Shown here one piece after another: positions 1-17,294 of a stretch of DNA of 21,014 bases. This stretch comes from Candidatus Heimdallarchaeota archaeon (GTDB lineage Archaea; Asgardarchaeota; Heimdallarchaeia; Heimdallarchaeales; Heimdallarchaeaceae). The stretch spans positions 1 to 21,014 of the forward strand of contig JAEOTE010000155.1 of assembly GCA_016839945.1 (NCBI GenBank), given 5' to 3'. A program made the position numbers and the translations under genes. The notes under the pieces were generated by a model. That model worked only from the letters and a program-made list of their open reading frames with translations, did not search any database and was not told where the DNA came from. The first letter of the stretch is position 1, and each line of letters begins with the position of its first letter.

Positions 1-93
1 GTTGAATACTGTCCAGTCGAAATAAATGCACTTACTGTAGCAGAAGCTCTGTACGGTGAAGTTGGTCAAACAAAGGAGGTTTTAGATTTATGA
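1..93 (+). CDS. hydB: C-terminal fragment of group 3b sulfhydrogenase beta (4Fe-4S) subunit, truncated by window edge
   Basis: Frame 1 reads VEYCPVEINALTVAEALYGEVGQTKEVLDL*. CPxxI is the tail of a ferredoxin-type CxxCxxCxxxCP motif. Its stop overlaps the gamma-subunit start (ATGA at 90-93), and the position fits the beta-gamma-delta-alpha order. Confidence 0.75.
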   Translation, partial: VEYCPVEINALTVAEALYGEVGQTKEVLDL

Positions 94-950
94 GTATTCA
101 GAAATGTGATGATGAAGAAATAAATACTTACAAAGCTCAACCTGCAAAAATCTTGTCTATAAAAGATCTTACAGAAGATACCAGGTATTTCAAGGTAAGA
201 TTTGTAGATGAAAGCATAATTGAAGAAGAATATAGACCTGGACAATTTGCAATAATGTCCATTCCTGGAGTTGGAGAAGCAGTATTTTCAATTTCTTCCC
301 CACCAACAAGAACAGATTTTATTGAATTTGGAATTAGAAAGGTTGGATCCTTCACTGAAGCTTTATTCAAACTCAAAGAAGGTGATATAATCTATCTCAG
401 AGGACCTTATGGTGATGGCTTTGATATGGCAGGATTAAAAGGTAGAGATCTGATTATTGTTTCTGGAGGACTAGGTGCTGTTCCATTAAGATCAGTTTTA
501 CTCTATGTAGAAGACAGAAGAGAAGAATATAATCAAGTATTTTTCTTGAATGGAGCAAGAAGTCCAGCAGACATGTTGTACCGAGAAGATTTCATAGCAA
601 TGGCATCAAGAGGAATAATTGAAACACATCTATCTGTTGATAAAGATGATACTGGTGAATGGCCATACAATGAAGGTTTTGTAACAGCTCTTTTCCCAAA
701 GATAGCAGATAGGGTGGTAAGTGAGAAAACTACTGCACTAATTTGTGGGCCTCCAATAATGTACAAGAATGTGATAAAAGAATTGTTGAAACTTAATATT
801 CCTAAAGATCAGATTTTGATGACACTCGAAAGAAGGATGAAGTGTGGTCAAGGTCATTGTGGTCATTGTGCTATTGAGGGTCGTTATACTTGTCTAGAAG
901 GACCTGTATTTACATACTATGATGTGCAACGCATCAAGGAGTTGATCTAA
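90..950 (+). CDS. hydG: Sulfhydrogenase gamma subunit (FAD/NAD(P)-binding, [2Fe-2S]; FNR/PyrK-like)
   Basis: RPGQF, FSISS, RGPYGDGF, GGLGAVPLRS and CGPPIM motifs; C-terminal ERRMKCGQGHCGHC...TCLEGPVF [2Fe-2S] motif; GGAGG RBS at about 75-79. Confidence 0.92.
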   Translation: MSIQKCDDEEINTYKAQPAKILSIKDLTEDTRYFKVRFVDESIIEEEYRPGQFAIMSIPGVGEAVFSISSPPTRTDFIEFGIRKVGSFTEALFKLKEGDIIYLRGPYGDGFDMAGLKGRDLIIVSGGLGAVPLRSVLLYVEDRREEYNQVFFLNGARSPADMLYREDFIAMASRGIIETHLSVDKDDTGEWPYNEGFVTALFPKIADRVVSEKTTALICGPPIMYKNVIKELLKLNIPKDQILMTLERRMKCGQGHCGHCAIEGRYTCLEGPVFTYYDVQRIKELI

Positions 951-1745
951 ATGTGGCAAAGAGAAAAGAAACCTATAGTGGGAGTATTTGGTTTTAGTGG
1001 TTGCGCTGGAGATCAATTGGCAATTCTTCATATGGAAGATGAATTAGTAGACTTCTTCACAAGTGCTGACATAAAGTTCTTTCATATGGCTCAATCCCAC
1101 CAAGAGGTTCCTAAAGTTGATATTGCTGTTGTAGAAGGGAGCATCAACACTGATAAACAGCTAAAGGAACTAGAAGAGATTAGAGAAATGGCTGATGTAG
1201 TTGTAGCAATTGGTACTTGTGCTTGCTATGGTGGCATCCAATATCTTGGTGAAAATCAAGAAGAATTCAATGAAAGAATGCAATACGTTTATGGCAAAGA
1301 TGGAGTTGTTCCTGAGTTTTCTGATCTTGTTGGACAACCAAATGCGGCTAAACCAATCAGCGACTTTATTAAGGTTGATTATGCAATTCCTGGATGTCCA
1401 ATTTCTAAGGAAAATTTTATTCCAATTTATGCGAAACTTATTTCAGGACTTTATCCACAGAAGTATCCATATCCTGTTTGTGTTGAATGTAAGTACGAAG
1501 GTAATGATTGTTTTCTACTTCATGGAAAATTCTGTTTAGGTCCAGTTACTGCTGCAGGATGCAGAGCTGTTTGTCCAAGTTTTGATGTATCTTGTGTAGG
1601 ATGTTTTGGAACATATGAAGGTGCAAATTATCCTTCACTGTATGATAAACTAAAGGAAATTGGATTAACAGAAGAAGATGTTACTCGCAAACTCAAGATG
1701 TTTGGGGGAGATGCAGTAGAAAAAATACTAAAAGGTGAAGAATAA
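951..1745 (+). CDS. hydD: Group 3b [NiFe]-hydrogenase small (delta) subunit
   Basis: GCAGD, VEGSI, GTCACYGG and PGCP proximal-cluster region, followed by CVEC...C...CLGPVT..GC...CP....SCVGCFG. Abuts the hydG stop codon. Confidence 0.93.
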   Translation: MWQREKKPIVGVFGFSGCAGDQLAILHMEDELVDFFTSADIKFFHMAQSHQEVPKVDIAVVEGSINTDKQLKELEEIREMADVVVAIGTCACYGGIQYLGENQEEFNERMQYVYGKDGVVPEFSDLVGQPNAAKPISDFIKVDYAIPGCPISKENFIPIYAKLISGLYPQKYPYPVCVECKYEGNDCFLLHGKFCLGPVTAAGCRAVCPSFDVSCVGCFGTYEGANYPSLYDKLKEIGLTEEDVTRKLKMFGGDAVEKILKGEE

Positions 1746-3031
1746 TGGCAGAAAAAACAGTTAGTGTAGATGTTCTAGCAAGAGTAGAAGGTGATGGGGG
1801 AATTCAAGTATATACAAAAGATGGTAAAGTAGACAAGGTTCTAGTAAACATCTTTGAAGGCCCTAGAATGATTGAAGCTCTTGTTAGAGGTAAAACTATA
1901 CATGAGAATCTCTCTCTTGTAGCTAGAATTTGCGCAATTTGTACAGTTTCTCACAGATATGCTTCAGCAAAAGCTATTGAGAAAGCGTTAAATGTTGAAG
2001 TAACCGAAAAAATCAAATTGTTAAGACATCTTTGGCATTTTGCTGAATATATAGAATCACATGTCCTACATGTTTATTACTTAACTCTCCCAGATTTCTT
2101 CAAACAACCATCAGCTATTGCTCTTCTTCCAACACATACAGATACAGTGATAGAAGCTGTAGAACTGAAGAAATATGGTACTGAATTAATGAAACTCTTA
2201 CATGGAAGGAAAATACATGGTGAGAATGCGATTATTGGTGGTTTTGGGAAACTTCCAACAGATGAGGAATTGGACTATTTTGTTGAAAAAGCTATTGAAT
2301 ACAAAGAAAGACTTTCCAAATTCTTAGATGTTTTTGCTTCATTAGAAATTCCAGATTACTGTGAAAGAGAAACAGTATTTATGTGCTGTAATCCTCCAAA
2401 TAATGAGTTTGGATTTGAAGGTGAAAGTATTCTGATATCTACTGGAGAAGAATATCCTGTAGAAGAATATAAAAAACTGACAAACGAGAGAGTAGTATCA
2501 CATAGTTATGCTAAAAGATCAAAATACAATGACAAACCATTTACAGTAGGAGCTTTAGCAAGATTGTTACTAATAGGAGACCGGTTAACTGGAGAAGCTA
2601 AAGAAAAATTTGATGCAATTTATAATGAAAGATGGAAAGTGAATCCCCTATATAACAATCATGCGCAACTAATTGAAACTTTATGGTGTTTTGAACAGAT
2701 ACCTGATTTAATAGCTAAAATTAAAGATCTACCAGATCCAGAAGTTGTTGAAGTAACTCAATTGGATGGAATTGCATCTGCAGCAGTAGAAGCTCCAAGA
2801 GGAATTCTATATCATACATATGATATTAAGGATGGAAAGATGGTTAATGCTGATATAATCACACCTACAGCTCAATTTCTAGATGATGTTGAAGAATACA
2901 TTAGAACAGCAGCAGAGAAATTATTGGCAGAAAATCATCCTGAGACAGAGCTTCAATTAGAAATGATTGCAAGAGCATATGATCCTTGCATTTCTTGTAG
3001 CTGTCATATGGTAAAATTGGTGAGACAATAA
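1745..3031 (+). CDS. hydA: Group 3b [NiFe]-hydrogenase large (alpha) subunit
   Basis: RVEG, L1 motif RICAIC, EAPRG, L2 motif DPCISCSCH followed by a 7-aa cleavable tail MVKLVRQ. TAATG overlap with hydD. Confidence 0.95.
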   Translation: MAEKTVSVDVLARVEGDGGIQVYTKDGKVDKVLVNIFEGPRMIEALVRGKTIHENLSLVARICAICTVSHRYASAKAIEKALNVEVTEKIKLLRHLWHFAEYIESHVLHVYYLTLPDFFKQPSAIALLPTHTDTVIEAVELKKYGTELMKLLHGRKIHGENAIIGGFGKLPTDEELDYFVEKAIEYKERLSKFLDVFASLEIPDYCERETVFMCCNPPNNEFGFEGESILISTGEEYPVEEYKKLTNERVVSHSYAKRSKYNDKPFTVGALARLLLIGDRLTGEAKEKFDAIYNERWKVNPLYNNHAQLIETLWCFEQIPDLIAKIKDLPDPEVVEVTQLDGIASAAVEAPRGILYHTYDIKDGKMVNADIITPTAQFLDDVEEYIRTAAEKLLAENHPETELQLEMIARAYDPCISCSCHMVKLVRQ

Positions 3032-3490
3032 TTGTCCCCCAAAATTTCTTTTTTTCAAGATATTGATGTTGAAACTATAGCTTTTTTTTGTTTAGGTAAT
3101 AGAGATAGATCTGATGATGCAGTAGGTTTGATTGTTGCAGATAAACTTATAAGAATCTATCCAAAAAATGTTTTTTCTGAGGAATTAGAAGATATTTCTA
3201 CCTTTTTAGTTGATGTAATAGAGAAGGATATTTATGAACATATTGTGATAATAGATGCAGTTGATTTTAATGCAAGCCCAGGATCAATACTAATTACCTC
3301 TGATATTTCAAATGAGATTCGTCCAATAACTACACATACAATTCCAATTAGTCAGATAAAGGAAATTGTGAAATCACAGAATAAACATTTTACACTTGTA
3401 GGAATACAAGTTAGTTCTATCAAATTTATGGGAGAAGTATCCAAAGAAGTTTTGAGAGCTGCAAAAGAGGTAGTTAATTTATTATCTTAA
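3032..3490 (+). CDS. hycI: Hydrogenase maturation endopeptidase (HycI/HyaD family)
   Basis: LGNRDRSDDAVG, IIDAV and TTHTIP motifs. The TTG start immediately follows the large-subunit stop, with GGTGAG upstream. Confidence 0.88.
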   Translation: MSPKISFFQDIDVETIAFFCLGNRDRSDDAVGLIVADKLIRIYPKNVFSEELEDISTFLVDVIEKDIYEHIVIIDAVDFNASPGSILITSDISNEIRPITTHTIPISQIKEIVKSQNKHFTLVGIQVSSIKFMGEVSKEVLRAAKEVVNLLS

Positions 3491-3550: not shown

Positions 3551-4624
3551 ATGATAGGGGCATATTTTCATGTCTGGATAAAAACTCTCTGGAAAAATCG
3601 ATTTAATGTCAGTCTTTTAAGATTTCATGTATTATTTGTTATAACATTAATGACATTTATGCAGTATCCTCTAGCCATAATAGAGAATCTCATGTTAAGA
3701 AGAAAGATCAAAAAAACAAAAATAGACAAAGATCCTGTCTTCATATTAGGTCATCAAAGAAGTGGAACAACTCATCTTTATAGACTGATGTCAAAGGATG
3801 AGTCGTTTTTATACACTAAATTAATTGATATATCCTATCCTTTGGTTTTTAGATACTTTAGGAAGATTGTTACATTTTTAACAACAACCTTCATGCCAGA
3901 AGAAAGACCAATGGATAGTATGGTTCTTGCAATTGACGAACCAGAAGAACATGAACTTGCAATTGCTTCATTCAATGGACTCTCGTATATAGTTGGGTAT
4001 ATGTTCCTCAATAACTTTCAGAAATATGAGATCTATGGAGGTTTTGAAAAAGCAACTGAAAAAGAAAGAGTAAAATGGATAAAGGACTTTCAATACTTCT
4101 TGAAGAAACTAATCGTGGAATATGGGAATAAAACACTTTTACTTAAATCACCTAATGACACAGAAAGAATACCTCTTCTACTAGAGCTGTTTCCTAATGC
4201 AAAATTCATTCACATTTATAGAGATCCATATCGCGTATTCTTATCCACAAAGAAATTATTCATTAAGAACAATAGAGACACTCATCTACAAAAGATAAAG
4301 ATAGATCTGGATGATTTTGCTATAAAGCACTATAATAAAATGTATAAGAAATTCTATGAAGATATCGCACTAATTCCTAAAGGTCAATTTATAGAAATAG
4401 CATACGAAAGTCTTGTTCAAAATCCTCTAGTAGAGCTTGAAAATATTTATGCTGAACTATCAATTCCAGGTTTCAAAAAAACTAAAAAGAATTTTGAAAA
4501 CTATCTGAATTCAATAAAGGATTATAAAGTTACAAAGTACGAAACAGATGAAGAACTAAAATCAAAAATTTATGCTGAATTATCATTTACTGCAAAGAAA
4601 TGGGGATATGTAAAAAATAATTAA
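3551..4624 (+). CDS. PAPS-dependent sulfotransferase (Sulfotransfer_3 / Stf3-like)
   Basis: 5'-PSB loop PVFILGHQRSGTTHL, LLKSP, 3'-PB motif FIHIYRDPY..FLS, and YESLVQNP. Confidence 0.88.
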   Translation: MIGAYFHVWIKTLWKNRFNVSLLRFHVLFVITLMTFMQYPLAIIENLMLRRKIKKTKIDKDPVFILGHQRSGTTHLYRLMSKDESFLYTKLIDISYPLVFRYFRKIVTFLTTTFMPEERPMDSMVLAIDEPEEHELAIASFNGLSYIVGYMFLNNFQKYEIYGGFEKATEKERVKWIKDFQYFLKKLIVEYGNKTLLLKSPNDTERIPLLLELFPNAKFIHIYRDPYRVFLSTKKLFIKNNRDTHLQKIKIDLDDFAIKHYNKMYKKFYEDIALIPKGQFIEIAYESLVQNPLVELENIYAELSIPGFKKTKKNFENYLNSIKDYKVTKYETDEELKSKIYAELSFTAKKWGYVKNN

Positions 4625-4652
4625 TTGCATTTTTACAGAAGCTCGAAATAAG

Positions 4653-4660
4653 TTTTTATA
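4653..4660 (+). promoter_or_regulatory. Putative TATA box, leaderless transcript of the GPH transporter
   Basis: TTTTTATA ends 24 nt before TTG 4685, the spacing typical of leaderless archaeal mRNAs. Confidence 0.4.
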
Positions 4661-4684
4661 GGACTATTCTGTTAATAGCGTATT

Positions 4685-6064
4685 TTGAAAAAGAAGAAAG
4701 AACGAAAAGCACTACATATGGTTTCATATGCTTCGATGATGCTAGCGAGTTCTACTTCTATTAATTTTCTAAACGCTAGAATTTTCAACTTTTATACAGA
4801 CGAAGTCGGTATGGATGTTATTTGGATTCCATTAGTAATGACTATTTATGCTATATGGAACAGTGTTAATGATCCTCTTTTTGGTTGGATATCTGATAAA
4901 ACTCGAACTCGTTGGGGAAGGCGTTTTCCATATGTAATGTTCGGTTTTATTCCGTTCATATTAGCGTTTATAGCTATTTGGTTAATTCCTGATGCTTTGG
5001 TTGATAGTCAAAAAACTATTGTTACTTGGATGTTGTTAACACTTCTAATTTTTGATTCATTATTCACAGTCGTAGTCCTTTCTTGGCATTCTCTTTTCCC
5101 AGAAAAATTTACTGATGCAAAAGATAGAAACATAGTATCTGCTATCAGACAAATTTTCTCACTGATTGCTATAGTAGTAGCTTTAGTTGTTGCTCCACTT
5201 ATGTTTGAATATGGTAATAGAAAATCATATACTGCTCCAATCCTAATGTTAGGTGGATTAATTCTTCTTGGATTCCTGCTCTCATTTTATGGAGTCAGAG
5301 ATAAAGAACTAGTGAAAAAATATGAGGAAACAAAAACAATTGAGACAGAGGAAAAAGAGAAGATTAGTTTCAAAGAATCTTTTGTACAAATTTTCAAAAA
5401 CAAAAATCTCTTTGCATTTGTCTTTGCATTTTGTTTTGCAAATATTGCTTATCTAACATTAATGGCAATGGTTCCCTATATGGTAAAATGGGTGTTTGTA
5501 GAATCCTCAAACTATGAGAGTTACATCCAAGGAACTGCAATGGGAGTTGCTATATTGTCCTTTGCCTTTTGGATATACATCTCAATAAAGAAAGGACCAA
5601 AATTAGTGTATATTCTTTGTGGAACAATATTCTTCGTTTCTCTTATACCTCTAGCATTTGCAACAACAAGTTGGGCATGGGTAGCTATTTTGTTAATGGT
5701 TGGAGTAGGATTTGCAATTTCAGGTTTACTACTAATCCCAGAAGTACTTCTTTCAGAAGTAATAGATGATGATTTTCAGAAACATGGGAAGAAAAGAGAA
5801 GGAATGTTCTTTGGGATATATGGATTCTTCTTAAGAATAGCTATTGTTTTTGAATCCTATCTTATTACAATAATACTAAATGCAACAGGTTATGATGCAA
5901 ATGCTGCAGCTCAAACAGAATTAGCAAAAAAAGGAATTAAGATAATAATGGTAGGTGTCCCTATTGTCTGTTTTACTTTAGGAATTCTACTGCTTTTCTT
6001 CTTCTATGATGTATCAAGAAAAAGACTAGGAATTAAAACTGATAAACGATTTTCTATATTTTAA
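4685..6064 (+). CDS. MFS transporter, glycoside-pentoside-hexuronide (MelB/MFS_2) family
   Basis: WNSVNDPLFGWISDKTRTRWGRRFPY signature, SEVIDDD...KREGMFFG motif, about 12 hydrophobic segments. Start may be TTG 4685 or a slightly later ATG. Confidence 0.88.
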   Translation: MKKKKERKALHMVSYASMMLASSTSINFLNARIFNFYTDEVGMDVIWIPLVMTIYAIWNSVNDPLFGWISDKTRTRWGRRFPYVMFGFIPFILAFIAIWLIPDALVDSQKTIVTWMLLTLLIFDSLFTVVVLSWHSLFPEKFTDAKDRNIVSAIRQIFSLIAIVVALVVAPLMFEYGNRKSYTAPILMLGGLILLGFLLSFYGVRDKELVKKYEETKTIETEEKEKISFKESFVQIFKNKNLFAFVFAFCFANIAYLTLMAMVPYMVKWVFVESSNYESYIQGTAMGVAILSFAFWIYISIKKGPKLVYILCGTIFFVSLIPLAFATTSWAWVAILLMVGVGFAISGLLLIPEVLLSEVIDDDFQKHGKKREGMFFGIYGFFLRIAIVFESYLITIILNATGYDANAAAQTELAKKGIKIIMVGVPIVCFTLGILLLFFFYDVSRKRLGIKTDKRFSIF

Positions 6065-6076
6065 ATTCATACCAAG

Positions 6077-6095
6077 CTTTTCTTTTAATTTTTTT
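6077..6095 (+). terminator. Putative archaeal oligo-T terminator
   Basis: CTTTTTCTTTTAATTTTTTT-type T-rich tract shortly after the stop at 6064. Confidence 0.4.
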
Positions 6096-6139
6096 CCAAA
6101 ACTCTTAAAATAAAAACTGAAATTTTATATGGGATTATA

Positions 6140-7615
6140 ATGGTTGAATCTACAGCAAAAACAAATGAAGTAAAAATTATTGCATTAATCTTTGCTGTAG
6201 GATCAGGGATTTTTATAACAACATCAGATGCATCTGTTATAGTTTTACTTCTAAATACAATCAAAGTCGATTTTGGGAGTCAACAGAATGAAATTCAATG
6301 GGTGATTCTTGCTTATCTTATGGTTATGATGGCATTTACAACATTACTGGGGGACTTAGGAGACAAATATGGAAATAAGATACTTTTCCAGATAGGTATT
6401 GGAATCTTTATCCTTGGATGTATTCTTTGTTTCTTCTCTCACTCATTAGCTTTCCTTATCGTTTCAAGAGTGATTCTGTCTATAGGCGTTGCATCAATAA
6501 TATCAAATGGAATGGCGATGCTAACTTATTTCACGACAACAGAGAACAGAGGAACAGTAATGGGGTTAACCAATTTATTGATAGGATTTTCTGTTCTAAT
6601 AGGAACTGTGCTAGCTTCAGTTATTACAGACTATTTTAACTGGAATAGCTCATTTTTCATTAATATTCCAATAGGCATTTTAAGCTTAGTTCTAATGCAT
6701 TTCTTGATTCCTGAAACTTTAGTATCAGAAAAAAAAGAAAAAACAGACTGGAAAGGAGCTTTTGTTTTTGCATCCTTTCTTTCTCTTTTAGTTTTGAGTT
6801 TAAGTATAGGTGTGGATCTAAAAATAAATCGAGGTTTCATGTGGGCTGGAATCATTTTATTTATTAGTTTGGTTTTTCTCACATTCTTTATACTAATAGA
6901 AAGAAAAATCCAAAATCCTCTGATAGAACTAGAATTATTCAGAAACAAGAAAATATCAGTAGGCGTTATAACTTCCACAATAGCCGAATTTGGTATGATT
7001 TGCATAATATACTTGTTCCCATTTTATCTACAAGAAATTCAAGGAATGACAAATATAATTCAAGTTGGATTAATCATAGCAGGTGTCCCAGTAGGTATGC
7101 CTATACTATCAGCTATTGCTGGGAAATTATCAGATAAAATAGATGCGAGAATAATAACAGCAATTGGATTATTTGGAATGTCTGTTACTTTCTTAATTCT
7201 AATATTTGTGATTGAAGTTAATACTCCTATATGGGCTCTAGTTCTTGTATCCATCCTTATGGGAGCTTCATTTGGAACCTTTCTAATACCAAACAATAAT
7301 TCACTGATGACTGCAGCGCCAGAGGAAAAACTAGGTGTTATAGGCGCTTTAAGTAGATTAAGCATGACTGTTGGAATCAGCTTAGGTACAGTAATGTCTG
7401 CAAGTATTTTTGTTTTAACTGGAAATATCTTAGAAAATAAAACAGGTTTAGGAGTGGATTACCCGCCAAATTATGTTCAATCTATGCGAGTAGTTTTCAT
7501 TGTTTTCTGTATAATTGTTCTATTAGGTGCTATATATTCCTATACTAGAGGACCAGAAGAAAGAGAAAAAGAAGTTACTCCTCAAGAAGAGGAGGTTAGT
7601 AAATCTATTACATAG
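6140..7615 (+). CDS. MFS drug:H+ antiporter, DHA2 (EmrB/QacA) 14-TMS family
   Basis: QWVILAYL, motif A variant GDLGDKYGNK, FFINIPIG, PLIELELFRN, GKLSDKIDAR; about 14 TM segments. Overlaps the convergent pdxT by 8 bp. Confidence 0.88.
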   Translation: MVESTAKTNEVKIIALIFAVGSGIFITTSDASVIVLLLNTIKVDFGSQQNEIQWVILAYLMVMMAFTTLLGDLGDKYGNKILFQIGIGIFILGCILCFFSHSLAFLIVSRVILSIGVASIISNGMAMLTYFTTTENRGTVMGLTNLLIGFSVLIGTVLASVITDYFNWNSSFFINIPIGILSLVLMHFLIPETLVSEKKEKTDWKGAFVFASFLSLLVLSLSIGVDLKINRGFMWAGIILFISLVFLTFFILIERKIQNPLIELELFRNKKISVGVITSTIAEFGMICIIYLFPFYLQEIQGMTNIIQVGLIIAGVPVGMPILSAIAGKLSDKIDARIITAIGLFGMSVTFLILIFVIEVNTPIWALVLVSILMGASFGTFLIPNNNSLMTAAPEEKLGVIGALSRLSMTVGISLGTVMSASIFVLTGNILENKTGLGVDYPPNYVQSMRVVFIVFCIIVLLGAIYSYTRGPEEREKEVTPQEEEVSKSIT

Positions 7616-8216
7616 AAAGAAAGTATTTGTGTATTCTAGAATCTTCAGTTAGTTCAGGATGGAAAGTACAAGCTAATACAGATTCGTTTCTAGCTAGAAT
7701 AGTTACATCTCTATGAGTTGATAGAACCTCTATATCTGGAGAATTTACTGAAATAATTTGTGGTGCACGAATAAAAACACCGTGAAAGTCTTTTGGATTA
7801 AAATCCTTGATTCTTAGCTTTACTTCAAAAGAATCAATTTGTCGTCCATAAGCATTACGTGCAGTAGATATATCTATTAATCCTAATCCTTCAAATGGAT
7901 CATTTTCTGATTGTCTTTCAATTTCTGTACTTAAAAGAACTACTCCTGCACATACTCCAAAAATCTTCATTCCTTCAGAGTGTTTCTGTATAATCTTTTT
8001 TCTAAGATTTTCTTCAGATTGATGCACAATACTCAATTTACTCATAACAGTGGATTCTCCACCAGGAATAATTAAGTGAGTTATAGGTTCGATATCTTTT
8101 TTTGTTTTAACTAAAGTAACCGGATAATTGAGGTCATTCATAGCTCTTCTGACAGCTAGAACATGTTCTCGAAAGTCTCCTTGAAGAGCTAGTACCCCAA
8201 CTATTGGTTCTTGCAT
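7608..8216 (-). CDS. pdxT: PLP synthase glutaminase subunit PdxT (SNO)
   Basis: GVLALQGDFREH, IIPGGEST, FGVCAG (catalytic Cys), RNAYGRQIDSF, FIRAP, FHPELT. 1-bp overlap with the pdxS stop. Confidence 0.96.
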   Translation of the reverse strand: MQEPIVGVLALQGDFREHVLAVRRAMNDLNYPVTLVKTKKDIEPITHLIIPGGESTVMSKLSIVHQSEENLRKKIIQKHSEGMKIFGVCAGVVLLSTEIERQSENDPFEGLGLIDISTARNAYGRQIDSFEVKLRIKDFNPKDFHGVFIRAPQIISVNSPDIEVLSTHRDVTILARNESVLACTFHPELTEDSRIHKYFLSM

Positions 8217-9172
8217 TAGATATCTGCTCCCCTCTCTTGCATACTTAATTCCATTTTATCTGTTTCAATACCAAACATAGTCTTTTGCTCATCGATCATC
8301 TCTTGAGCTTCAAGAACTTTAGCAGGATCATTGAAATGAGTTGTAGCAAGAACAATAGCTCTAGCTCTATTTTCTGGATCTTCAGCTTTGAAAATACCTG
8401 AACCAACGAATATTCCATCAGCTCCTAATAGCATCATTTCAGCTGCATCAGCAGGAGTTGCAATTCCTCCAGCAGAGAAATTCACTACAGGTAATCTTCC
8501 TAATCTACAGGTTTCTATAAGAGTGTCTAAAGAAACTTTGAGTGTCCGAGCTGTAGCCATAAGCTGTTGACCATCATTGTTCTCATACAATTTCTTTGCA
8601 TGCTCAATCCCATTAAGATACCTTCGCATGTGTTTTATAGCATGAGCTACGTTTCCAGTTCCTGGTTCACCTTTAGTTCTGATCATAGCAGCTCCTTCCT
8701 CGATCCTTCGAAGAGCTTCACCTAAGTCTCTAGCTCCGCAAACAAATGGAGTGTGGAAAGGCCATTTCCAAATATGTCTTTCTTCATCAGCAGGAGTAAG
8801 AACCTCACTTTCATCTACTAAATCTACACCGATAGCTTCCAAAACCTTAGCTTCATATGTGTGACCAATTCGACATTTAGCCATAATCGGAATACTAACT
8901 GCTCCCATTACTTCTCTAATTTTATCGACACTAGCAGTACGAGCAATTCCTCCAACTTTTCTAACATCAAAGGGAAGTTTATCTAAAACCATCACAGAAA
9001 CAGCACCAGCTTTTTCAGCTATACGTGCCTGTTCAGCATTGGTCACATCCATAACGACTCCACCTTTTAACATGTCAGCAAAGCCATATTTGACCTTAAC
9101 AGTGCCTTTAATTTCACCATCTTTCTCAATTTCACCAATATGTCTGTAATCCCAATAATCTTTCAATTTCAT
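8216..9172 (-). CDS. pdxS: PLP synthase lyase subunit PdxS (SNZ), archaeal type
   Basis: [55 protein letters not shown]. Start reassigned to ATG 9172 (MKLKDYWDY) because it has a GAGGT RBS, and the longer 9217 start falls inside the promoter/operator region. Confidence 0.96.
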
Positions 9173-9183
9173 TACCTCTTTAA

Positions 9184-9205
9184 TATACAAGTCGAAACTT
9201 GTATA
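9184..9205. promoter_or_regulatory. Perfect inverted repeat, putative operator O1 upstream of pdxS
   Basis: TATACAAGT-cgaa-ACTTGTATA: 9-bp perfect arms with a 4-nt spacer, 11 nt upstream of the pdxS ATG. Confidence 0.7.
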
Positions 9206-9210
9206 ATTGA

Positions 9211-9232
9211 TATTCAAGTTAAATCTTGTATA
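9211..9232. promoter_or_regulatory. Second copy of the same palindrome, putative operator O2
   Basis: TATtCAAGT-taaa-tCTTGTATA: same geometry, 2 arm mismatches versus O1, offset by 27 bp. Confidence 0.65.
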
Positions 9233-9235
9233 CGT

Positions 9236-9250
9236 GTTTATAACCTTTTT
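9236..9250 (-). promoter_or_regulatory. BRE-TATA promoter of pdxST
   Basis: Minus strand reads AAAAAGG-TTATAAAC, a purine-rich BRE followed by a TATA box. The predicted TSS at about 9210-9215 lies at the O1/O2 junction. Confidence 0.6.
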
Positions 9251-9345
9251 GTTATGAAGATAAAAAAAGAAAAAAAATCTTTACTTTATTTTTTTAAAGA
9301 ACAATATATTCATATTAATATTAAAAACAAGTTTTGGAGAACAAA

Positions 9346-9684
9346 TTGAAAGGAAAAAACGTAATTATAGGATTTAGTTTGATAATTCTAATATTTGTTA
9401 CAATACAGTTCTCTATAGCAGAACAAGAAGAAATGATGAATCAAGTAGTAAATCAGAGCATTGGATTCAGTGATGAATGTTGTGATCCAGATTGTGACCC
9501 AATCCGTGATCGTGATAGAGATCGATACCGTGATCGAGATGGATGTCTAGATTGCGGTTTTGATTGCGATTGTGATTGTAATCCAGATTGTGACCCAAAT
9601 TGTGACCCAATCCGTTATCGTATTAGAGATCATAACCGTACTCGAGAAGGCTTAAGAAATTGCACACGATCTAATCTTGGATGA
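9346..9684 (+). CDS. Small secreted or membrane-anchored Cys/Asp/Arg-rich repeat protein
   Basis: TTG 9346 preceded by GGAG. N-terminus MKGKNVIIGFSLIILIFVTIQFSIA resembles a signal peptide. C-terminal region has 11 Cys in CDPDC/DCDCDC motifs and DRDRDR runs. Confidence 0.65.
   Translation: MKGKNVIIGFSLIILIFVTIQFSIAEQEEMMNQVVNQSIGFSDECCDPDCDPIRDRDRDRYRDRDGCLDCGFDCDCDCNPDCDPNCDPIRYRIRDHNRTREGLRNCTRSNLG
9491..9647 (+). repeat. Intragenic direct repeat (49 bp x2, period 108 bp) plus short GAT-TGY/GAT-CGT codon repeats
   Basis: 9491-9539 versus 9599-9647 match at 41/49 positions by manual alignment and encode CDPIRxRxRDxxRxR twice. Confidence 0.8.
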
Positions 9685-9710
9685 ATTTTACTAGTTAGAT
9701 TGATTTAAAA

Positions 9711-9725
9711 TTCTTCTTTTTTTTT
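9711..9725 (+). terminator. Putative oligo-T terminator
   Basis: TTCTTCTTTTTTTTT tract 26 nt after the stop at 9684. Confidence 0.45.
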
Positions 9726-9833
9726 CCTCTCTACTATATTAGTAGTAAATATAACTAAAAGATTCAATATTGAAATAATATAAATACTAGAAAAAGTAAT
9801 CGTTTAACTGATTTATAAGTTAGGAGAAATAAT

Positions 9834-10394
9834 ATGAAACCAGAAGAGGAGAATAGTTTTAGTTATGAATTCTCAAAAGCACATGTATTAGAGATAGTAG
9901 GAGATTGGTTTAAAGCTAAGAGAATAATGTATGCTGATGAAATGTTTGAGGATTACTACAAATTTGTTGAGGAACAGTGTTTTACTAATAATTTCATTGA
10001 AGAATTAATTAAAACACAAGTTAGGGAATCGATATACAAATGGTTAAGTGTTTTTCATGAAGGGAAGAAAGATACTTATGATCATATAGATAAGGAAGAG
10101 GGAGAAATAGTTCCAGAATGGTTTCTTAAAAACAGATACAAGGAACTAGAAGATATGTTTTCCTCAAAATACTTTAGCTATGATTTTAAAACAGTTGAAA
10201 CAGAATATGATAGTGCATTTAAAGCATTTGTAGTATCTGTTAGTACAGATAAAGAAATTGGTGAAATTACTATTCGGATTTTATCAGATGACATAGAAAC
10301 TTATTTAGAAAATAGATTAACTCTGTTAAGTTTTATAGAAAGTAAGATTGTTGATAAAAACACTGCTGAATTTATATTTAAAATGGATTGGTAG
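9834..10394 (+). CDS. Hypothetical protein (acidic, aromatic-rich, 186 aa)
   Basis: AGGAG RBS before the ATG; fills the gap with a codon style like its neighbours; no motif recognised. Confidence 0.7.
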   Translation: MKPEEENSFSYEFSKAHVLEIVGDWFKAKRIMYADEMFEDYYKFVEEQCFTNNFIEELIKTQVRESIYKWLSVFHEGKKDTYDHIDKEEGEIVPEWFLKNRYKELEDMFSSKYFSYDFKTVETEYDSAFKAFVVSVSTDKEIGEITIRILSDDIETYLENRLTLLSFIESKIVDKNTAEFIFKMDW

Positions 10395-10399
10395 TTTTT

Positions 10400-11746
10400 C
10401 TAGATATAATCAATTAAGTCTCTCATTTTTTGAAGAGTCTCAACACCTTTTCTAGTTAAGATGTAGTGTTTTCTTTTAGCTTTTTCTTCCTTAACTGAAA
10501 TAAGTCCTTTGCTCTCTAGTTCACTAAGATGCTGATAAATTGCTTGTATATTCATACTCTCTCTTCCAAGCGATTCCCAAATCGAATATCCATAATCTGC
10601 TTTCTCTTCAGCTATAAGATTAAGTATCTCGAATTTTGTTGTAGAACTTTCAGATAATCCCCAAACGATTTTTTTCTTTCCTCTCAACTGTGATGCAAAT
10701 ATGTTTAGAGCATTGAAGCCTGACCCAGTAAGAATTGCAACTGATTTAGAAGGCTCTAATTCTTTGTTCTTAATTAACTTCCTTGCAGCTGCTATAACTG
10801 AAGCTGATGCTGGTTCAATAAAAAGACCTTCATTTTTAGCAATTTCAAGAGCTTCTTCAATCATTACACTTGCTTTAATTTCTATTTCTTTTCCTTCTGT
10901 TTTCTCAAGAAGTTCTTCAACTTCTCTTAGAAGAAATGGTTGTTTACTTTCTAAAGATTCAGCTAGATATGCTGTCTTTGTTTTTTCTAAAGAAACAGTA
11001 TAAAGTCTTGGAATTTTTTTTATCCATCCTGATGCAAAAGCATCTTCCAATCCTCTATAGATAGAATAAACTAGCGATCCTGAACCTCTTGGAACAATAA
11101 TACTGTCTATGTTTTCTTTTTGAAGTAAGATTTCTAAGCTAATAGTTTTTTGCCCTTCTATTGTAAGAAGGTTTTTCTCAGGAGTAGCTGAATAAGCCTT
11201 CTCTTTTTCTGCTGTTTTTTCAGCTGCTGAAATAGCGTCATTTACGAATTCTCCTTTTTCAATAACTTTACTACCATATAGTTTCATTTGTTCTATTTTA
11301 GAGAGTTCTAAATTATGTGGAATGACATTGATTGATTCAATACCAGCTTTTGCAGCATATGCAGAGAGACTGATACTAAAAGAACCTGTGCTAGCTCCAA
11401 CTATTTTATCATACTTTCTTTGATATGCATCAGAAAGTATTAATGAACAAGCTCGATCTCTGAAAGTTCCTGTAGGATTTCGGAACTCAAGTTTTAAACC
11501 TAGGTTTTTCAGATCGGAATCTTTAGTTAAGTGTAGTAAAGGTGTATTGCCTTCAGCTAATGATATAGGATTTTTGAAGTTTGGTAGAAAACTCTGAAGA
11601 GACCACATAGATGCAAGATTAATCATGGATAAAGAGGGACCTTCAATAGGGGGAATAGTAACAAGACCCTCACAATTGGGACATCTTAGTAAAGGTTCTC
11701 CTATCTCTTTGTTACATTTAATACATTTAGGTTGATTAATCCACAT
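10400..11746 (-). CDS. Threonine-synthase-like (PLP fold type II) domain lacking the catalytic Lys, with N-terminal Zn ribbon and C-terminal PadR-like winged helix; probable transcription regulator
   Basis: CIKC...CPNC; SLAEGNTPL; NPTGTFRDR (canonical FKDR); ASTGS...SLSAYAA; EGQKT; VPRGSGS; EGLFIEPASA; ILTGSG. C-terminal TKFEILNLIAE...YGYSIWESL...QAIYQHLSELESKGLI...RKHYILTRKG. Confidence 0.85.
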   Translation of the reverse strand: MWINQPKCIKCNKEIGEPLLRCPNCEGLVTIPPIEGPSLSMINLASMWSLQSFLPNFKNPISLAEGNTPLLHLTKDSDLKNLGLKLEFRNPTGTFRDRACSLILSDAYQRKYDKIVGASTGSFSISLSAYAAKAGIESINVIPHNLELSKIEQMKLYGSKVIEKGEFVNDAISAAEKTAEKEKAYSATPEKNLLTIEGQKTISLEILLQKENIDSIIVPRGSGSLVYSIYRGLEDAFASGWIKKIPRLYTVSLEKTKTAYLAESLESKQPFLLREVEELLEKTEGKEIEIKASVMIEEALEIAKNEGLFIEPASASVIAAARKLIKNKELEPSKSVAILTGSGFNALNIFASQLRGKKKIVWGLSESSTTKFEILNLIAEEKADYGYSIWESLGRESMNIQAIYQHLSELESKGLISVKEEKAKRKHYILTRKGVETLQKMRDLIDYI

Positions 11747-11802
11747 CTAATGTTCTAATTAGCTAAATAAAATATAACTCTATTTGTCACCAACAGCATT
11801 TT

Positions 11803-12012
11803 TCAAAGAGTTTCTATACCTACAGGATCTTCATTTTTGTCAACTTCAATGTCGCAAGAGCATAATTCAGACATCATTTCTTCAAGCTGAAAGGATAAAG
11901 GTTCTTCAAACTCTAGAAAGAATTCAATCTCTTGTTTCATGAGATAATCAGTTAGATGTATCAAAAGCTGTTTTTCTTTTGCTGAGTGAACAACGATACG
12001 CATAATTCTCAT
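11803..12012 (-). CDS. Small acidic hypothetical protein (69 aa)
   Basis: ATG-initiated ORF filling the gap upstream of the ThrC-wHTH gene on the same strand; protein-like composition; no known motif. Confidence 0.5.
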   Translation of the reverse strand: MRIMRIVVHSAKEKQLLIHLTDYLMKQEIEFFLEFEEPLSFQLEEMMSELCSCDIEVDKNEDPVGIETL

Positions 12013-12143
12013 ATAAAATGTAAATTGAAAAACTTTACTAACACTTAAAAGAAGCGTAATTCTAAAAGATTGTAGTTAAATTTACGAGAAAATTATATAA
12101 ATAAGTTATATCTTTGCAATATAAATCGAAGTAGTGATTAATT

Positions 12144-13848: not shown

Positions 13849-14541
13849 TTATTTGAAAAGAGATAGTATTCTCTTTTTATCCTCTTTTTCTAATTCTTCT
13901 AATCCTTTAAGAGTATCTTTGTTCAAAGCTTTCCAGAATATACATTTCTCATGATGCCAACGATAGTTCAAGTGATCTTCATAATAGTATGGTTCCCCTG
14001 CTCTTACCGTATCCTTTTCAATTTTTAGGCCACAAGTTTTACAGGTTGATCTACTACTTTTGGCATATTCTACTTTCCAAGCATCTTCATGATCATAAGA
14101 TGTTAACCTATCAGTTTGATCTGTTTTTAGTTGATTAATTATCTCAATTGGATCTTGGTCATTAAGTAAGTTTTTAGAGATTTTCAAATAGAAAATATCA
14201 AACTTACTCATCTCAAAAGCAAGTTGAGCTGGTTTATCTTGTTTGAGTTCCTTATGTATTCGAACCTTTGGTGGAAATTGATTATTCCTAAGAATGTACT
14301 TTGCACAAGCTTCGGACATCAAGGAACTTAATCGTCGTTTATCATAAGTTGAAAATTTCTTCCCTTCAACTAAGCCATAAGATGAGTTGGTTACAGTTCT
14401 ATCTATATCTTCAATGTACTCTCTTTCTTTAATAATCACAAAAGATCTATCAGGGATTTCATCAACTATTTTGGAGATCTCGAATGTTTCAGGATCTACA
14501 TAAAAACCCCATTCATCATCTGATTCAAGTGTCATTTTCAT
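13849..14541 (-). CDS. Protein with C-terminal PARP-type zinc finger and an unrecognised N-terminal domain
   Basis: WKVEYAKSSRSTCKTC-x26-HEKC...LKGLEELEKEDKKRI matches the zf-PARP pattern (EYAKSxRxxCxxC...WxHxxC...GxxxL..xD...I) of PARP1 and ligase III. Confidence 0.85.
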   Translation of the reverse strand: MKMTLESDDEWGFYVDPETFEISKIVDEIPDRSFVIIKEREYIEDIDRTVTNSSYGLVEGKKFSTYDKRRLSSLMSEACAKYILRNNQFPPKVRIHKELKQDKPAQLAFEMSKFDIFYLKISKNLLNDQDPIEIINQLKTDQTDRLTSYDHEDAWKVEYAKSSRSTCKTCGLKIEKDTVRAGEPYYYEDHLNYRWHHEKCIFWKALNKDTLKGLEELEKEDKKRILSLFK

Positions 14542-16457: not shown

Positions 16458-17294
16458 TTAGCTAGGTTGTAAAACGCCAGCAAAAACTAACCAAGCTAGA
16501 AGTGTTTTTGCAACCAAGCTAAGTATTTGATACATTCTTTCTCCATAAAGGTAATCTTTCCAAGGTCCTACTTTTTTATATTGAAGTAACATATTGAATG
16601 CAAAGGACATAAACAATAGAAATTCAACTACATAAATTACAGGAACGAACCAAGGGAGATTTTCTGCATCAGACGCTGCAACACCAAAAATATATGATAA
16701 TACTATCCATGGCATAATGCCTGCAACCCATCCATATATGTAAGAAAGCCAATTAGTTTTTTCTGTTGTTTGATTATGTACTTCCATTACATGACCAAAT
16801 AAATTCATTAAGGCGTTCACACCGAATATTAATGCTAAAACCCAGAAATCTCTAACACCAAAGAATAAGGCTATAAAAGCAACCATCAATGAACTTGAAA
16901 AAGCATATTCAAACCATCTAATTGGATTCATCTTCTTCTTTAGATTCTTTACATAGAAATTGTAAAGAGGTCCAGCAATTAATAAATGTGCTACTGCTGA
17001 AAAAAGCAAAAATGCTGCAACAGTAGGTCCTACTGCACTAAATTCAAAGAGAGTATCTGTTTTAATTACAGATGTAGGAATTCCTCCAATTAACTCAATA
17101 TCATTATAAGTTGATAATACAGGAATTGGAGCAAAATTCTTCAATGCATCTACAGATACACCCAAAACTATCATAGCAATGCCTTGAACAAGATGAAGAA
17201 TACCCATTGCTAGATTAAATTTTCTTAAGTAAGTAAATCTGATTGGAGATTGAAAACCATTATCCAATACAGACATTTCTTTTTCAATTGACAT
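16458..17294 (-). CDS. heR: Heliorhodopsin
   Basis: LRKFNLAMGILHLVQG (TM1 His), AVAHL (TM2 His), NPIRWFEYAFSSSLM (counterion Glu), MNLFGHVME, ERMYQILSLVAKTLLAW (retinal-binding Lys in SxxxK), long TM1-TM2 beta loop. Confidence 0.95.
   Translation of the reverse strand: MSIEKEMSVLDNGFQSPIRFTYLRKFNLAMGILHLVQGIAMIVLGVSVDALKNFAPIPVLSTYNDIELIGGIPTSVIKTDTLFEFSAVGPTVAAFLLFSAVAHLLIAGPLYNFYVKNLKKKMNPIRWFEYAFSSSLMVAFIALFFGVRDFWVLALIFGVNALMNLFGHVMEVHNQTTEKTNWLSYIYGWVAGIMPWIVLSYIFGVAASDAENLPWFVPVIYVVEFLLFMSFAFNMLLQYKKVGPWKDYLYGERMYQILSLVAKTLLAWLVFAGVLQPS

Follow-up and report, generated by a model that had tools for sequence, protein, structure and literature searches.

The window analysed here is a stretch of 21,014 nucleotides (contig JAEOTE010000155.1, positions 1 to 21,014) from the genome of a Candidatus Heimdallarchaeota archaeon (assembly GCA_016839945.1; 3.0 Mb, 32% G+C, 186 contigs, 88% complete). 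It carries the two genes of pyridoxal 5'-phosphate (PLP) synthase, pdxS and pdxT, preceded by two copies of a palindromic operator, and close to them a gene coding a threonine synthase-like domain fused to a winged helix, a candidate regulator of vitamin B6 supply. The elements of this locus are the following.

7608-8216, minus strand: pdxT, glutaminase subunit of PLP synthase, second gene of the operon (PF01174 SNO, 172.2 bits)
8216-9172, minus strand: pdxS, PLP synthase subunit, first gene of the operon (PF01680 SOR_SNZ, 315.8 bits)
9184-9205, no strand: operator O1, proximal, a perfect 22-bp palindrome (9+4+9) in the 5' leader (28.8 bits)
9211-9232, no strand: operator O2, distal, an imperfect copy (29.0 bits)
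9237-9243, minus strand: TATA box TTATAAA of the pdxS promoter, predicted by sequence reading, just upstream of O2
9244-9250, minus strand: purine-rich stretch of the pdxS promoter resembling a transcription factor B recognition element (BRE), by sequence reading
10400-11746, minus strand: gene of the fusion protein (448 aa, PALP and PadR domains), the putative regulator

The pdxST operon and its double operator

The SOR_SNZ and SNO domains are coded by neighbouring genes that abut at position 8216 and identify PLP synthase PdxS/PdxT, so that the pdxST operon recognised in an earlier note on this DNA is backed by strong Pfam matches for both genes. The pdxT counterpart in another genome of the genus (G004) is syntenic and 74% identical. 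The mechanical open reading frame (ORF) of pdxS begins at a TTG at 9217, within the operator; the true start is likely the ATG at 9172, which has GAGGT in front at 9174-9178.

Towards pdxS the order is TATA box, O2, O1, GAGGT and ATG. O2 begins 4 nt downstream of the TATA box and spans the expected transcription start, while O1 ends 5 nt ahead of the ribosome-binding site. The two tandem 22-bp palindromes are thus found where the earlier note had placed them, between TATA box and ribosome-binding site. Their starts are 27 bp apart and their arms differ at two positions, the operator having the form TAT-W-CAAGT-N4-ACTTG-W-ATA. The arrangement of a TATA box followed by the operator recurs in six other genomes (G007, G004, G042, G043, G046 and G047).

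A degenerate pattern of the palindrome allowing at most one mismatch matches the window twice, against 0.00 expected from 100 shuffles. A weight matrix of the operator was built from Asgard loci and used for whole-genome and cross-phylum scoring. Over the 3.0 Mb genome its two best sites are O2 and O1, and the next best reaches 15.6 bits. The scan revealed no additional regulon site above this value in the genome, and the enrichment before unrelated genes that would have spoken against the reading of the earlier note was not seen. An autoregulatory site upstream of the fusion gene was not found at 11747-12143. One further regulon member was considered and rejected: a site with one mismatch in three genomes (G005, G008 and G022) falls within a conserved coding region of 152 aa, at its 3' end, and is taken as a chance match.

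A threonine synthase fold with a winged helix

The stop codon of the fusion gene is 1.2 kb from the pdxS start. The protein features an amino-terminal Zn-ribbon (Cys 8, 11, 22 and 25), a PALP domain at residues 61-341 (175.7 bits), a linker at residues 343-364 and a PadR-type winged helix that extends from residue 366 to 447. The PF03551 match (residues 374-439, 35.6 bits, gathering cut-off 27) assigns the latter to the PadR family. This carboxyl-terminal domain, the sole DNA-binding domain of the protein, matches PadR, HTH_45 and DUF4364, not GntR. The AlphaFold model of the fusion has a predicted local distance difference test (pLDDT) score of 86.8; the linker is disordered or of low confidence and the winged helix is composed of three helices followed by a beta hairpin. 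Its best PDB matches are threonine synthases, with 27-29% identity and a shared fold over residues 52-349.

Several signature residues of threonine synthase are replaced. The position of the Schiff-base Lys is occupied by R96 in the motif NPTGTF-R-DR, T195 aligns with the Arg that precedes EGQKT, and GSGS stands in place of the GNAG loop. In threonine synthase this Arg presumably holds the substrate phosphate and GNAG is taken to be the cofactor-phosphate loop. The earlier note had described a PLP-enzyme homolog lacking the Schiff-base Lys and fused to a PadR-like winged helix about 1.2 kb from the operon, a description that the domain searches and alignments confirm. Its statement that this is the only DNA-binding regulator of the window stands for the scanned ORFs, where no other transcription-factor domain is present; a few small ORFs were outside the scan.

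These replacements were followed in 80 loci from genome contigs, 36 with fusions carrying the winged helix and 44 with unfused homologs. The fusion loci span Asgard, Bathyarchaeia, Nitrososphaerota, Hadarchaeota, Thermoprotei and others. In the fusions the Lys position holds Arg 15 times, Lys nine times, Met and Ile four times each, Leu twice and Ala once, one locus not being covered, while Lys is found in 43 of the 44 unfused homologs. The Arg aligned at position 195 is lost in all 36 fusions and kept in 41/44 unfused homologs, and the GNAG loop is G-[ST]-G in fusions and mostly GNAG in unfused homologs. F95, G221, G223, S314 and G343, part of the pocket scaffold, are invariant across the fusion alignment. 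Among Asgard homologs, the ~100 with a winged helix have almost always Arg at the Lys position and the shorter unfused ones keep Lys. Nine fusions that retain Lys (L011, L012, L016, L018-L020 and L022-L024) come from two Bathyarchaeia and from a Promethearchaeia/Hermod clade; they share other family-specific changes and may bind PLP covalently.

The fusion scores under every cut-off of the NCBIfam threonine synthase models (282.3 versus 421 bits for NF004170; 99.8 versus 167.1 bits for TIGR00260), and two further ThrC paralogs in the same genome bear the Lys. Its relatives are named 'threonine synthase' or 'pyridoxal-phosphate dependent enzyme' in the databases. NF004170 (PRK05638), a 'threonine synthase' equivalog model of 442 positions, aligns to fusion residues 7-441, including the winged helix, and probably gives enzyme names to regulators of this family in some archaeal genomes.

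A homodimer model of the fusion scores 0.79 against 0.00 for the best control, with a pLDDT of 82 and runs that share at least 74% of contacts. In the benchmark, 20 of 30 proteins known to form pairs from their solved structures attained this mark, as did 1 of 23 solved as single chains. The predicted interface is within the PALP domain, and this result may reflect memory of solved ThrC dimers. Such a predicted dimer fits a palindromic site.

Exchange of pdxST for an ECF importer within the genus

The genus sample consisted of 24 other genomes plus that of the window, 25 in all, and was compared to 15 genomes of sister families. The fusion is present in 22 of the 24 other genomes and pdxS in only three of them (4/25 with the genome of the window). 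In all four genomes with pdxS the gene is preceded by the same operator, as the earlier note had predicted for relatives carrying the fusion; G004, G007 and G015 have one or two copies of the palindrome between TATA box and pdxS start codon. The sister families display the reverse situation: pdxS is found in 14/15 genomes, while fusion, importer gene (see below) and operator at pdxS are found in none. The best operator score at their pdxS loci is 11.8 bits, for a site that is not near the pdxS start. The expectation of the earlier note that the motif is missing where the fusion is missing thus proved correct at pdxS of these 14 genomes.

A plain co-occurrence of fusion and pdxS, also suggested there, fails on these same counts, with fusions in 22/24 and pdxS in 3/24 genomes of the genus and 0/15 and 14/15, respectively, in the sister families. 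This does not refute regulation of B6 supply because an alternative target explains it. A pattern search of the genus revealed a site, mostly with 0 or 1 mismatch, near the fusion gene in most genomes that lack pdxS. In the 15 loci of this type examined, the site is 20-40 bp before a gene coding a 266-300-aa PF07155 membrane protein, the S component of an energy-coupling factor (ECF) transporter. The S gene is followed by a gene for a fused EcfAA' ATPase and then by an ORF of 241 aa in the position of EcfT. The ATPase matches TIGR04520 (E = 2.1e-81) and TIGR04521 (E = 2.2e-75), in both cases under the model cut-offs; the 241-aa ORF has no NCBIfam family match.

The S component matches PF07155 with E = 5.9e-25 (88.7 bits, cut-off 26.7), has ECF genes behind it and belongs to the PdxU/PdxU2 (HmpT) family. 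Its sole significant PDB match is chain S of 4hzu (E = 1.3e-8), which we take to be the apo HmpT structure. The B6 importers of PF07155 are PdxU and PdxU2/HmpT (PMC9997740), and pyridoxamine is the substrate of HmpT (PMC4860826). Family membership and mutual exclusion with pdxS suggest that the archaeal S component imports a B6 vitamer.

The ECF operon fills exactly the slot of pdxST between identical flanking genes, which are the hydrogenase cluster on one side and, on the other side, a small Cys/Asp-rich ORF, the fusion, orf69, an AMP-dependent ligase and a protein with a PARP-type zinc finger (zf-PARP). No genome of the genus has both genes, pdxS being present in 4 and the S gene in 17, and no S homolog was found in the genome of the window. 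This swap of pdxST and importer at one locus makes the assignment to B6 stronger than the earlier note could know. Two alternative B6 supplies under one operator, beside one regulator gene, are the strongest argument for a system dedicated to B6.

The two closest relatives (G003 and G016), whose fusions are 91-92% identical, yielded no pdxS and no S gene. The target was probably lost in assembly gaps rather than being absent, since the fusion sits on very short contigs.

Two ORFs separate the operator from the fusion gene in the window:

9346-9684, plus strand: small ORF with an amino-terminal hydrophobic segment and Cys/Asp-rich repeats (CDPDCDP / DRDRDR-type), divergent from pdxS
9834-10394, plus strand: 186-aa ORF with no family match, between the small Cys/Asp-rich ORF and the fusion gene

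The small Cys/Asp-rich ORF has no Pfam match. Most genomes of the genus have a homolog between operator and fusion gene that diverges from pdxS or from the S gene. The ORF may be co-regulated and could share the regulated promoter region. This ORF was rejected as the real target because the operator abuts the start of pdxS or of the S gene and stays where the ORF is missing, preceding the S gene in G009 and G011. The 186-aa ORF has no counterpart at the syntenic loci of five genomes (G014, G005, G004, G001 and G013) and therefore looks like a recent insertion.

Distribution of fusion, operator and targets across Archaea

Five distant Asgard genomes with the fusion, including the complete ones of Promethearchaeum syntrophicum MK-D1 and Heimdallarchaeum endolithica, all have an S gene with palindromes directly upstream. 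It adjoins the fusion in four of them and is 260 kb apart in H. endolithica. pdxS was not found by the query used in these five genomes, nor in five more fusion-bearing genomes.

Among the 36 fusion loci from the various archaeal phyla, the S gene is adjacent in 24 and pdxST in two, one from Hadarchaeota and one from Nitrososphaerales. The association of the fusion with pdxST that the earlier note had asked about thus exists in the neighbourhood of these two loci, its plain co-occurrence version being the part that failed. Most of the 26 target-adjacent loci have the best or near-best match to the Asgard matrix in their whole 5-21 kb just upstream of the target gene. Operator variants follow the fusion clade, as listed below.

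CAAGT-type operator: Heimdall, Loki, Hadarchaeota and Thermococci
TAAGT-type operator: Lys-retaining Promethearchaeia/Hermod clade, before the S gene
ATAGTT- or AAAGTT-type operator: Bathyarchaeia
TATATAAGC-type operator: Nitrososphaerota, before S genes in three loci and between divergent pdxS and fusion in L034

In two Thermococci genomes a CAAGT-N4-ACTTG site precedes an S gene that is unlinked to the fusion. The operator is thus found on an unlinked S gene in two lineages, H. endolithica and Thermococci.

Five Bathyarchaeia loci (L009, L010, L013, L014 and L033) have a Lys-bearing thrC just upstream of the fusion on the opposite strand. The S gene is on the other side in the first four and was not found in L033. 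The adjacent thrC may be a trace of the duplication that produced the regulator.

Model of regulation and alternatives

The comparisons show the domain make-up of the fusion and the residues it has lost, an operator that is unique, conserved and linked to the fusion gene, and targets that replace each other; the operator-binding protein, its ligand and the direction of regulation are inferred. The fusion is likely a dimeric B6-responsive repressor, acting on pdxST here and on a B6 importer in most relatives, and a convergent analogue of bacterial PdxR. As part of this whole explanation, the 448-aa protein would likewise be a one-component transcription factor and not an enzyme. The interpretation as a PdxR analogue, put forward in the earlier note, is supported, while the set of targets is corrected: the PdxU-like importer is the rule and pdxST is the target in few lineages, this one included.

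The fusion would dimerise through its threonine-synthase-fold domain and its two carboxyl-terminal winged helices would therefore face the two arms of a palindrome. A pair of dimers bound to O1 and O2 would then keep RNA polymerase from starting pdxST transcription. In archaea, sites downstream of the TATA box and over the start are the position where repressors block polymerase recruitment. The sensor keeps the scaffold that cradles PLP, without the Schiff-base Lys and the substrate-phosphate Arg, and a B6 vitamer, probably PLP, would be bound non-covalently as co-repressor. Since the targets are genes for supply of the end product, this is the economical logic. Sufficiency of B6 would turn off PLP synthesis in this archaeon and B6 import in most relatives.

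A number of observations weigh against this model. The substrate of the S component is assigned solely from its protein family. Lys is kept in nine fusions, and its loss is therefore not defining for the family, whose chemistry could differ in those members. The Asn that contacts the PLP 3'-hydroxyl in threonine synthase is Ser in the fusion, so that PLP binding is uncertain. Many PadR-type regulators release DNA on ligand binding; if that mode holds, B6 would induce its targets, an odd logic for genes of synthesis or uptake. At some loci the fusion has no B6 gene nearby, such as L017 (Thermococci) and L025 (Nitrososphaerota, beside an amino-acid permease gene). The neighbourhoods of these two loci, with genes for a proteasome subunit, FttA, RpiA, another PALP enzyme, an amino-acid permease and a signal peptidase, are not informative. 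Finally, five Bathyarchaeia loci have a true thrC paralog beside the fusion.

The alternative that survives best, although unlikely, is that the fusion binds the operator but works like PdxR, the apo-protein activating pdxST or the importer and PLP cancelling the activation. The characterised PdxR proteins do act as apo-activators (PMC5320631). Both modes have the same physiological outcome, less synthesis when B6 is plentiful, and comparative genomics cannot separate an apo-activator from a co-repressed repressor on that basis. The position of the sites speaks for the repressor: in every lineage examined they follow the TATA box, covering the expected start and the leader, and are often within 20-40 bp of the start codon, while archaeal activators usually bind upstream of BRE and TATA box.

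A slightly less probable possibility is that the sensor responds to an amino-acid-type ligand, be it O-phosphohomoserine, threonine or a different PLP substrate, whether or not PLP is bound as cofactor, in the manner of GabR with GABA, and that B6 is not the signal. The descent of the domain from threonine synthase, the Lys retained in nine fusions and the thrC gene beside the fusion in the five Bathyarchaeia loci would agree with such a ligand. However, the conserved targets are solely B6 supply genes, either PdxU-like S components or pdxST, and four of the five Bathyarchaeia loci with thrC contain in addition an S gene preceded by a palindrome. The substrate-site phosphate Arg is lost in all fusions, and 26 of the 35 covered fusions have R, M, I, L or A at the Lys position, which rules out aldimine chemistry there.

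It is more doubtful still that the palindromes, though real operators, serve a different regulator and that the fusion is merely a neighbour with another role. The tie between protein and operator is indirect, and synteny within the genus extends to the Cys/Asp-rich ORF and to orf69. Yet these small ORFs were not found at the cross-phylum loci, where fusion and operator-bearing target are adjacent in 26/36 cases covering Asgard, Bathyarchaeia, Nitrososphaerota, Hadarchaeota and Thermoprotei. The operator variants track the fusion clade, no operator is found where the fusion is missing, and the fusion has the only DNA-binding domain common to these loci. Least credible of all is that the fusion is still active as threonine synthase or as another PLP enzyme and carries an additional domain, as database names and a threonine synthase model as best NCBIfam match might imply, given the score of 282 bits against that model's cut-off of 421, R96 in place of the catalytic Lys, the missing substrate-phosphate Arg, the altered phosphate loop and the two Lys-bearing paralogs elsewhere in the genome.

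Relation to known regulators

The proposed B6 repressor resembles the bacterial PdxR/MocR proteins in joining the fold of a PLP enzyme, as sensor, to a winged helix and in its predicted regulon of pdxST plus a PdxU-type importer; PdxR regulons contain pdxST, pdxK and pdxU (PMC5320631). MocR proteins have an amino-terminal GntR-type domain followed by a fold-type I aminotransferase domain, while the fusion has a fold-type II threonine-synthase domain followed by a carboxyl-terminal PadR-type domain. Both features that define the MocR/PdxR proteins, the amino-terminal GntR winged helix and the fold-type I domain with its PLP-binding Lys, are thus missing in the fusion. PdxR binds PLP via Lys and activates as apo-protein, whereas the fusion has Arg at the Lys position and the placement of its sites suggests repression. 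The two are convergent, not homologous. MocR proteins were reported not to be present in Archaea (PMC5320631), the B6 transporters characterised so far in prokaryotes number only three (PMC9997740), and the literature searched yielded no paper describing this fusion or any archaeal B6 regulator.

Within Archaea a close parallel is the riboflavin regulator RbkR (PMC5397151), also a one-component protein with an enzyme-derived cofactor sensor and a helix-turn-helix domain, which represses synthesis and transport genes from palindromes near the promoter. RbkR retains kinase activity, in contrast to the catalytically dead sensor of the fusion. In both RbkR and ThiR the sensor is a domain of the vitamin's own metabolism, while that of the fusion derives from an enzyme that uses PLP and not from an enzyme of the B6 pathway. 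The vitamin, the sensor fold and the DNA-binding family also differ. ThiR is a comparable archaeal regulator of enzyme origin, for thiamine.

ThrC and the fusion have the same fold over residues 52-349, and the dimer interface predicted for the fusion is in this same domain; archaeal ThrC has an amino-terminal Zn-ribbon as well. The fusion differs by Arg for the catalytic Lys, Thr for the substrate-phosphate Arg, GSGS for GNAG and ~100 additional residues of linker and winged helix. It shares with the PadR family the PF03551 match above cut-off and a palindromic operator that suits a dimer. Classical PadR proteins are small and have an amino-terminal winged helix and a carboxyl-terminal dimerisation helix, while in the fusion the winged helix is carboxyl-terminal and dimerisation is predicted to occur via the enzyme-like domain.

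Other genes of the window

The stretch is present in only three DNA runs, all from one marine-sediment study, with no RNA run among its listed matches, and the closest matches of its proteins are labelled Heimdallarchaeota or Thorarchaeota. Its further genes include:

90-3490, plus strand: four-gene NiFe hydrogenase cluster (FAD/NAD-binding, small and large subunits, HycI-type maturation protease), the conserved left flank of the swapped cassette
3551-7615, plus strand: sulfotransferase gene and two major facilitator superfamily (MFS) transporter genes, between the hydrogenase cluster and pdxT
13849-14541, minus strand: 230-aa protein with an amino-terminal part of no assigned family and a carboxyl-terminal PARP-type zinc finger (PF00645, 56.1 bits)
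16458-17294, minus strand: intact heliorhodopsin gene (PF18761, 283 bits)

The MFS gene at 6140-7615 (plus strand) shares 8 bp with the end of pdxT and accompanies pdxST in G004 too. The PARP-type zinc-finger gene has syntenic counterparts in four further genomes of the genus, where they adjoin the AMP-dependent ligase. A gene similar to alpha-mannosidases of glycoside hydrolase family 38 (17381-20173) adjoins the heliorhodopsin gene.

Implications for B6 supply in Archaea

Beyond the locus of the window, the findings make it fairly likely that the fusions form a pan-archaeal family of B6 sensors, the first B6 regulator in Archaea, in which a dead threonine-synthase fold reads PLP, the operator marks B6 supply genes and one locus of a Heimdall genus switches between pdxST and PdxU-like ECF import. 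The gap left by the missing archaeal MocR/PdxR would then be filled by an independent invention on another PLP-enzyme fold. This would also correct a widely used annotation, 'threonine synthase' or 'PLP-dependent enzyme', by which archaeal threonine-pathway calls are inflated, and it provides a testable function for the archaeal PF07155 ECF S components. Fusion protein and 22-bp operator are a compact candidate B6 biosensor. The pair is also a genomic marker that distinguishes B6 makers from importers in Asgard and other archaea, with bearing on syntrophy and on cultivation media. If the proposed function is true, it would map B6 prototrophy and auxotrophy, and hence the dependence on partners for this cofactor, across Asgard archaea, including the cultured Promethearchaeum syntrophicum MK-D1.

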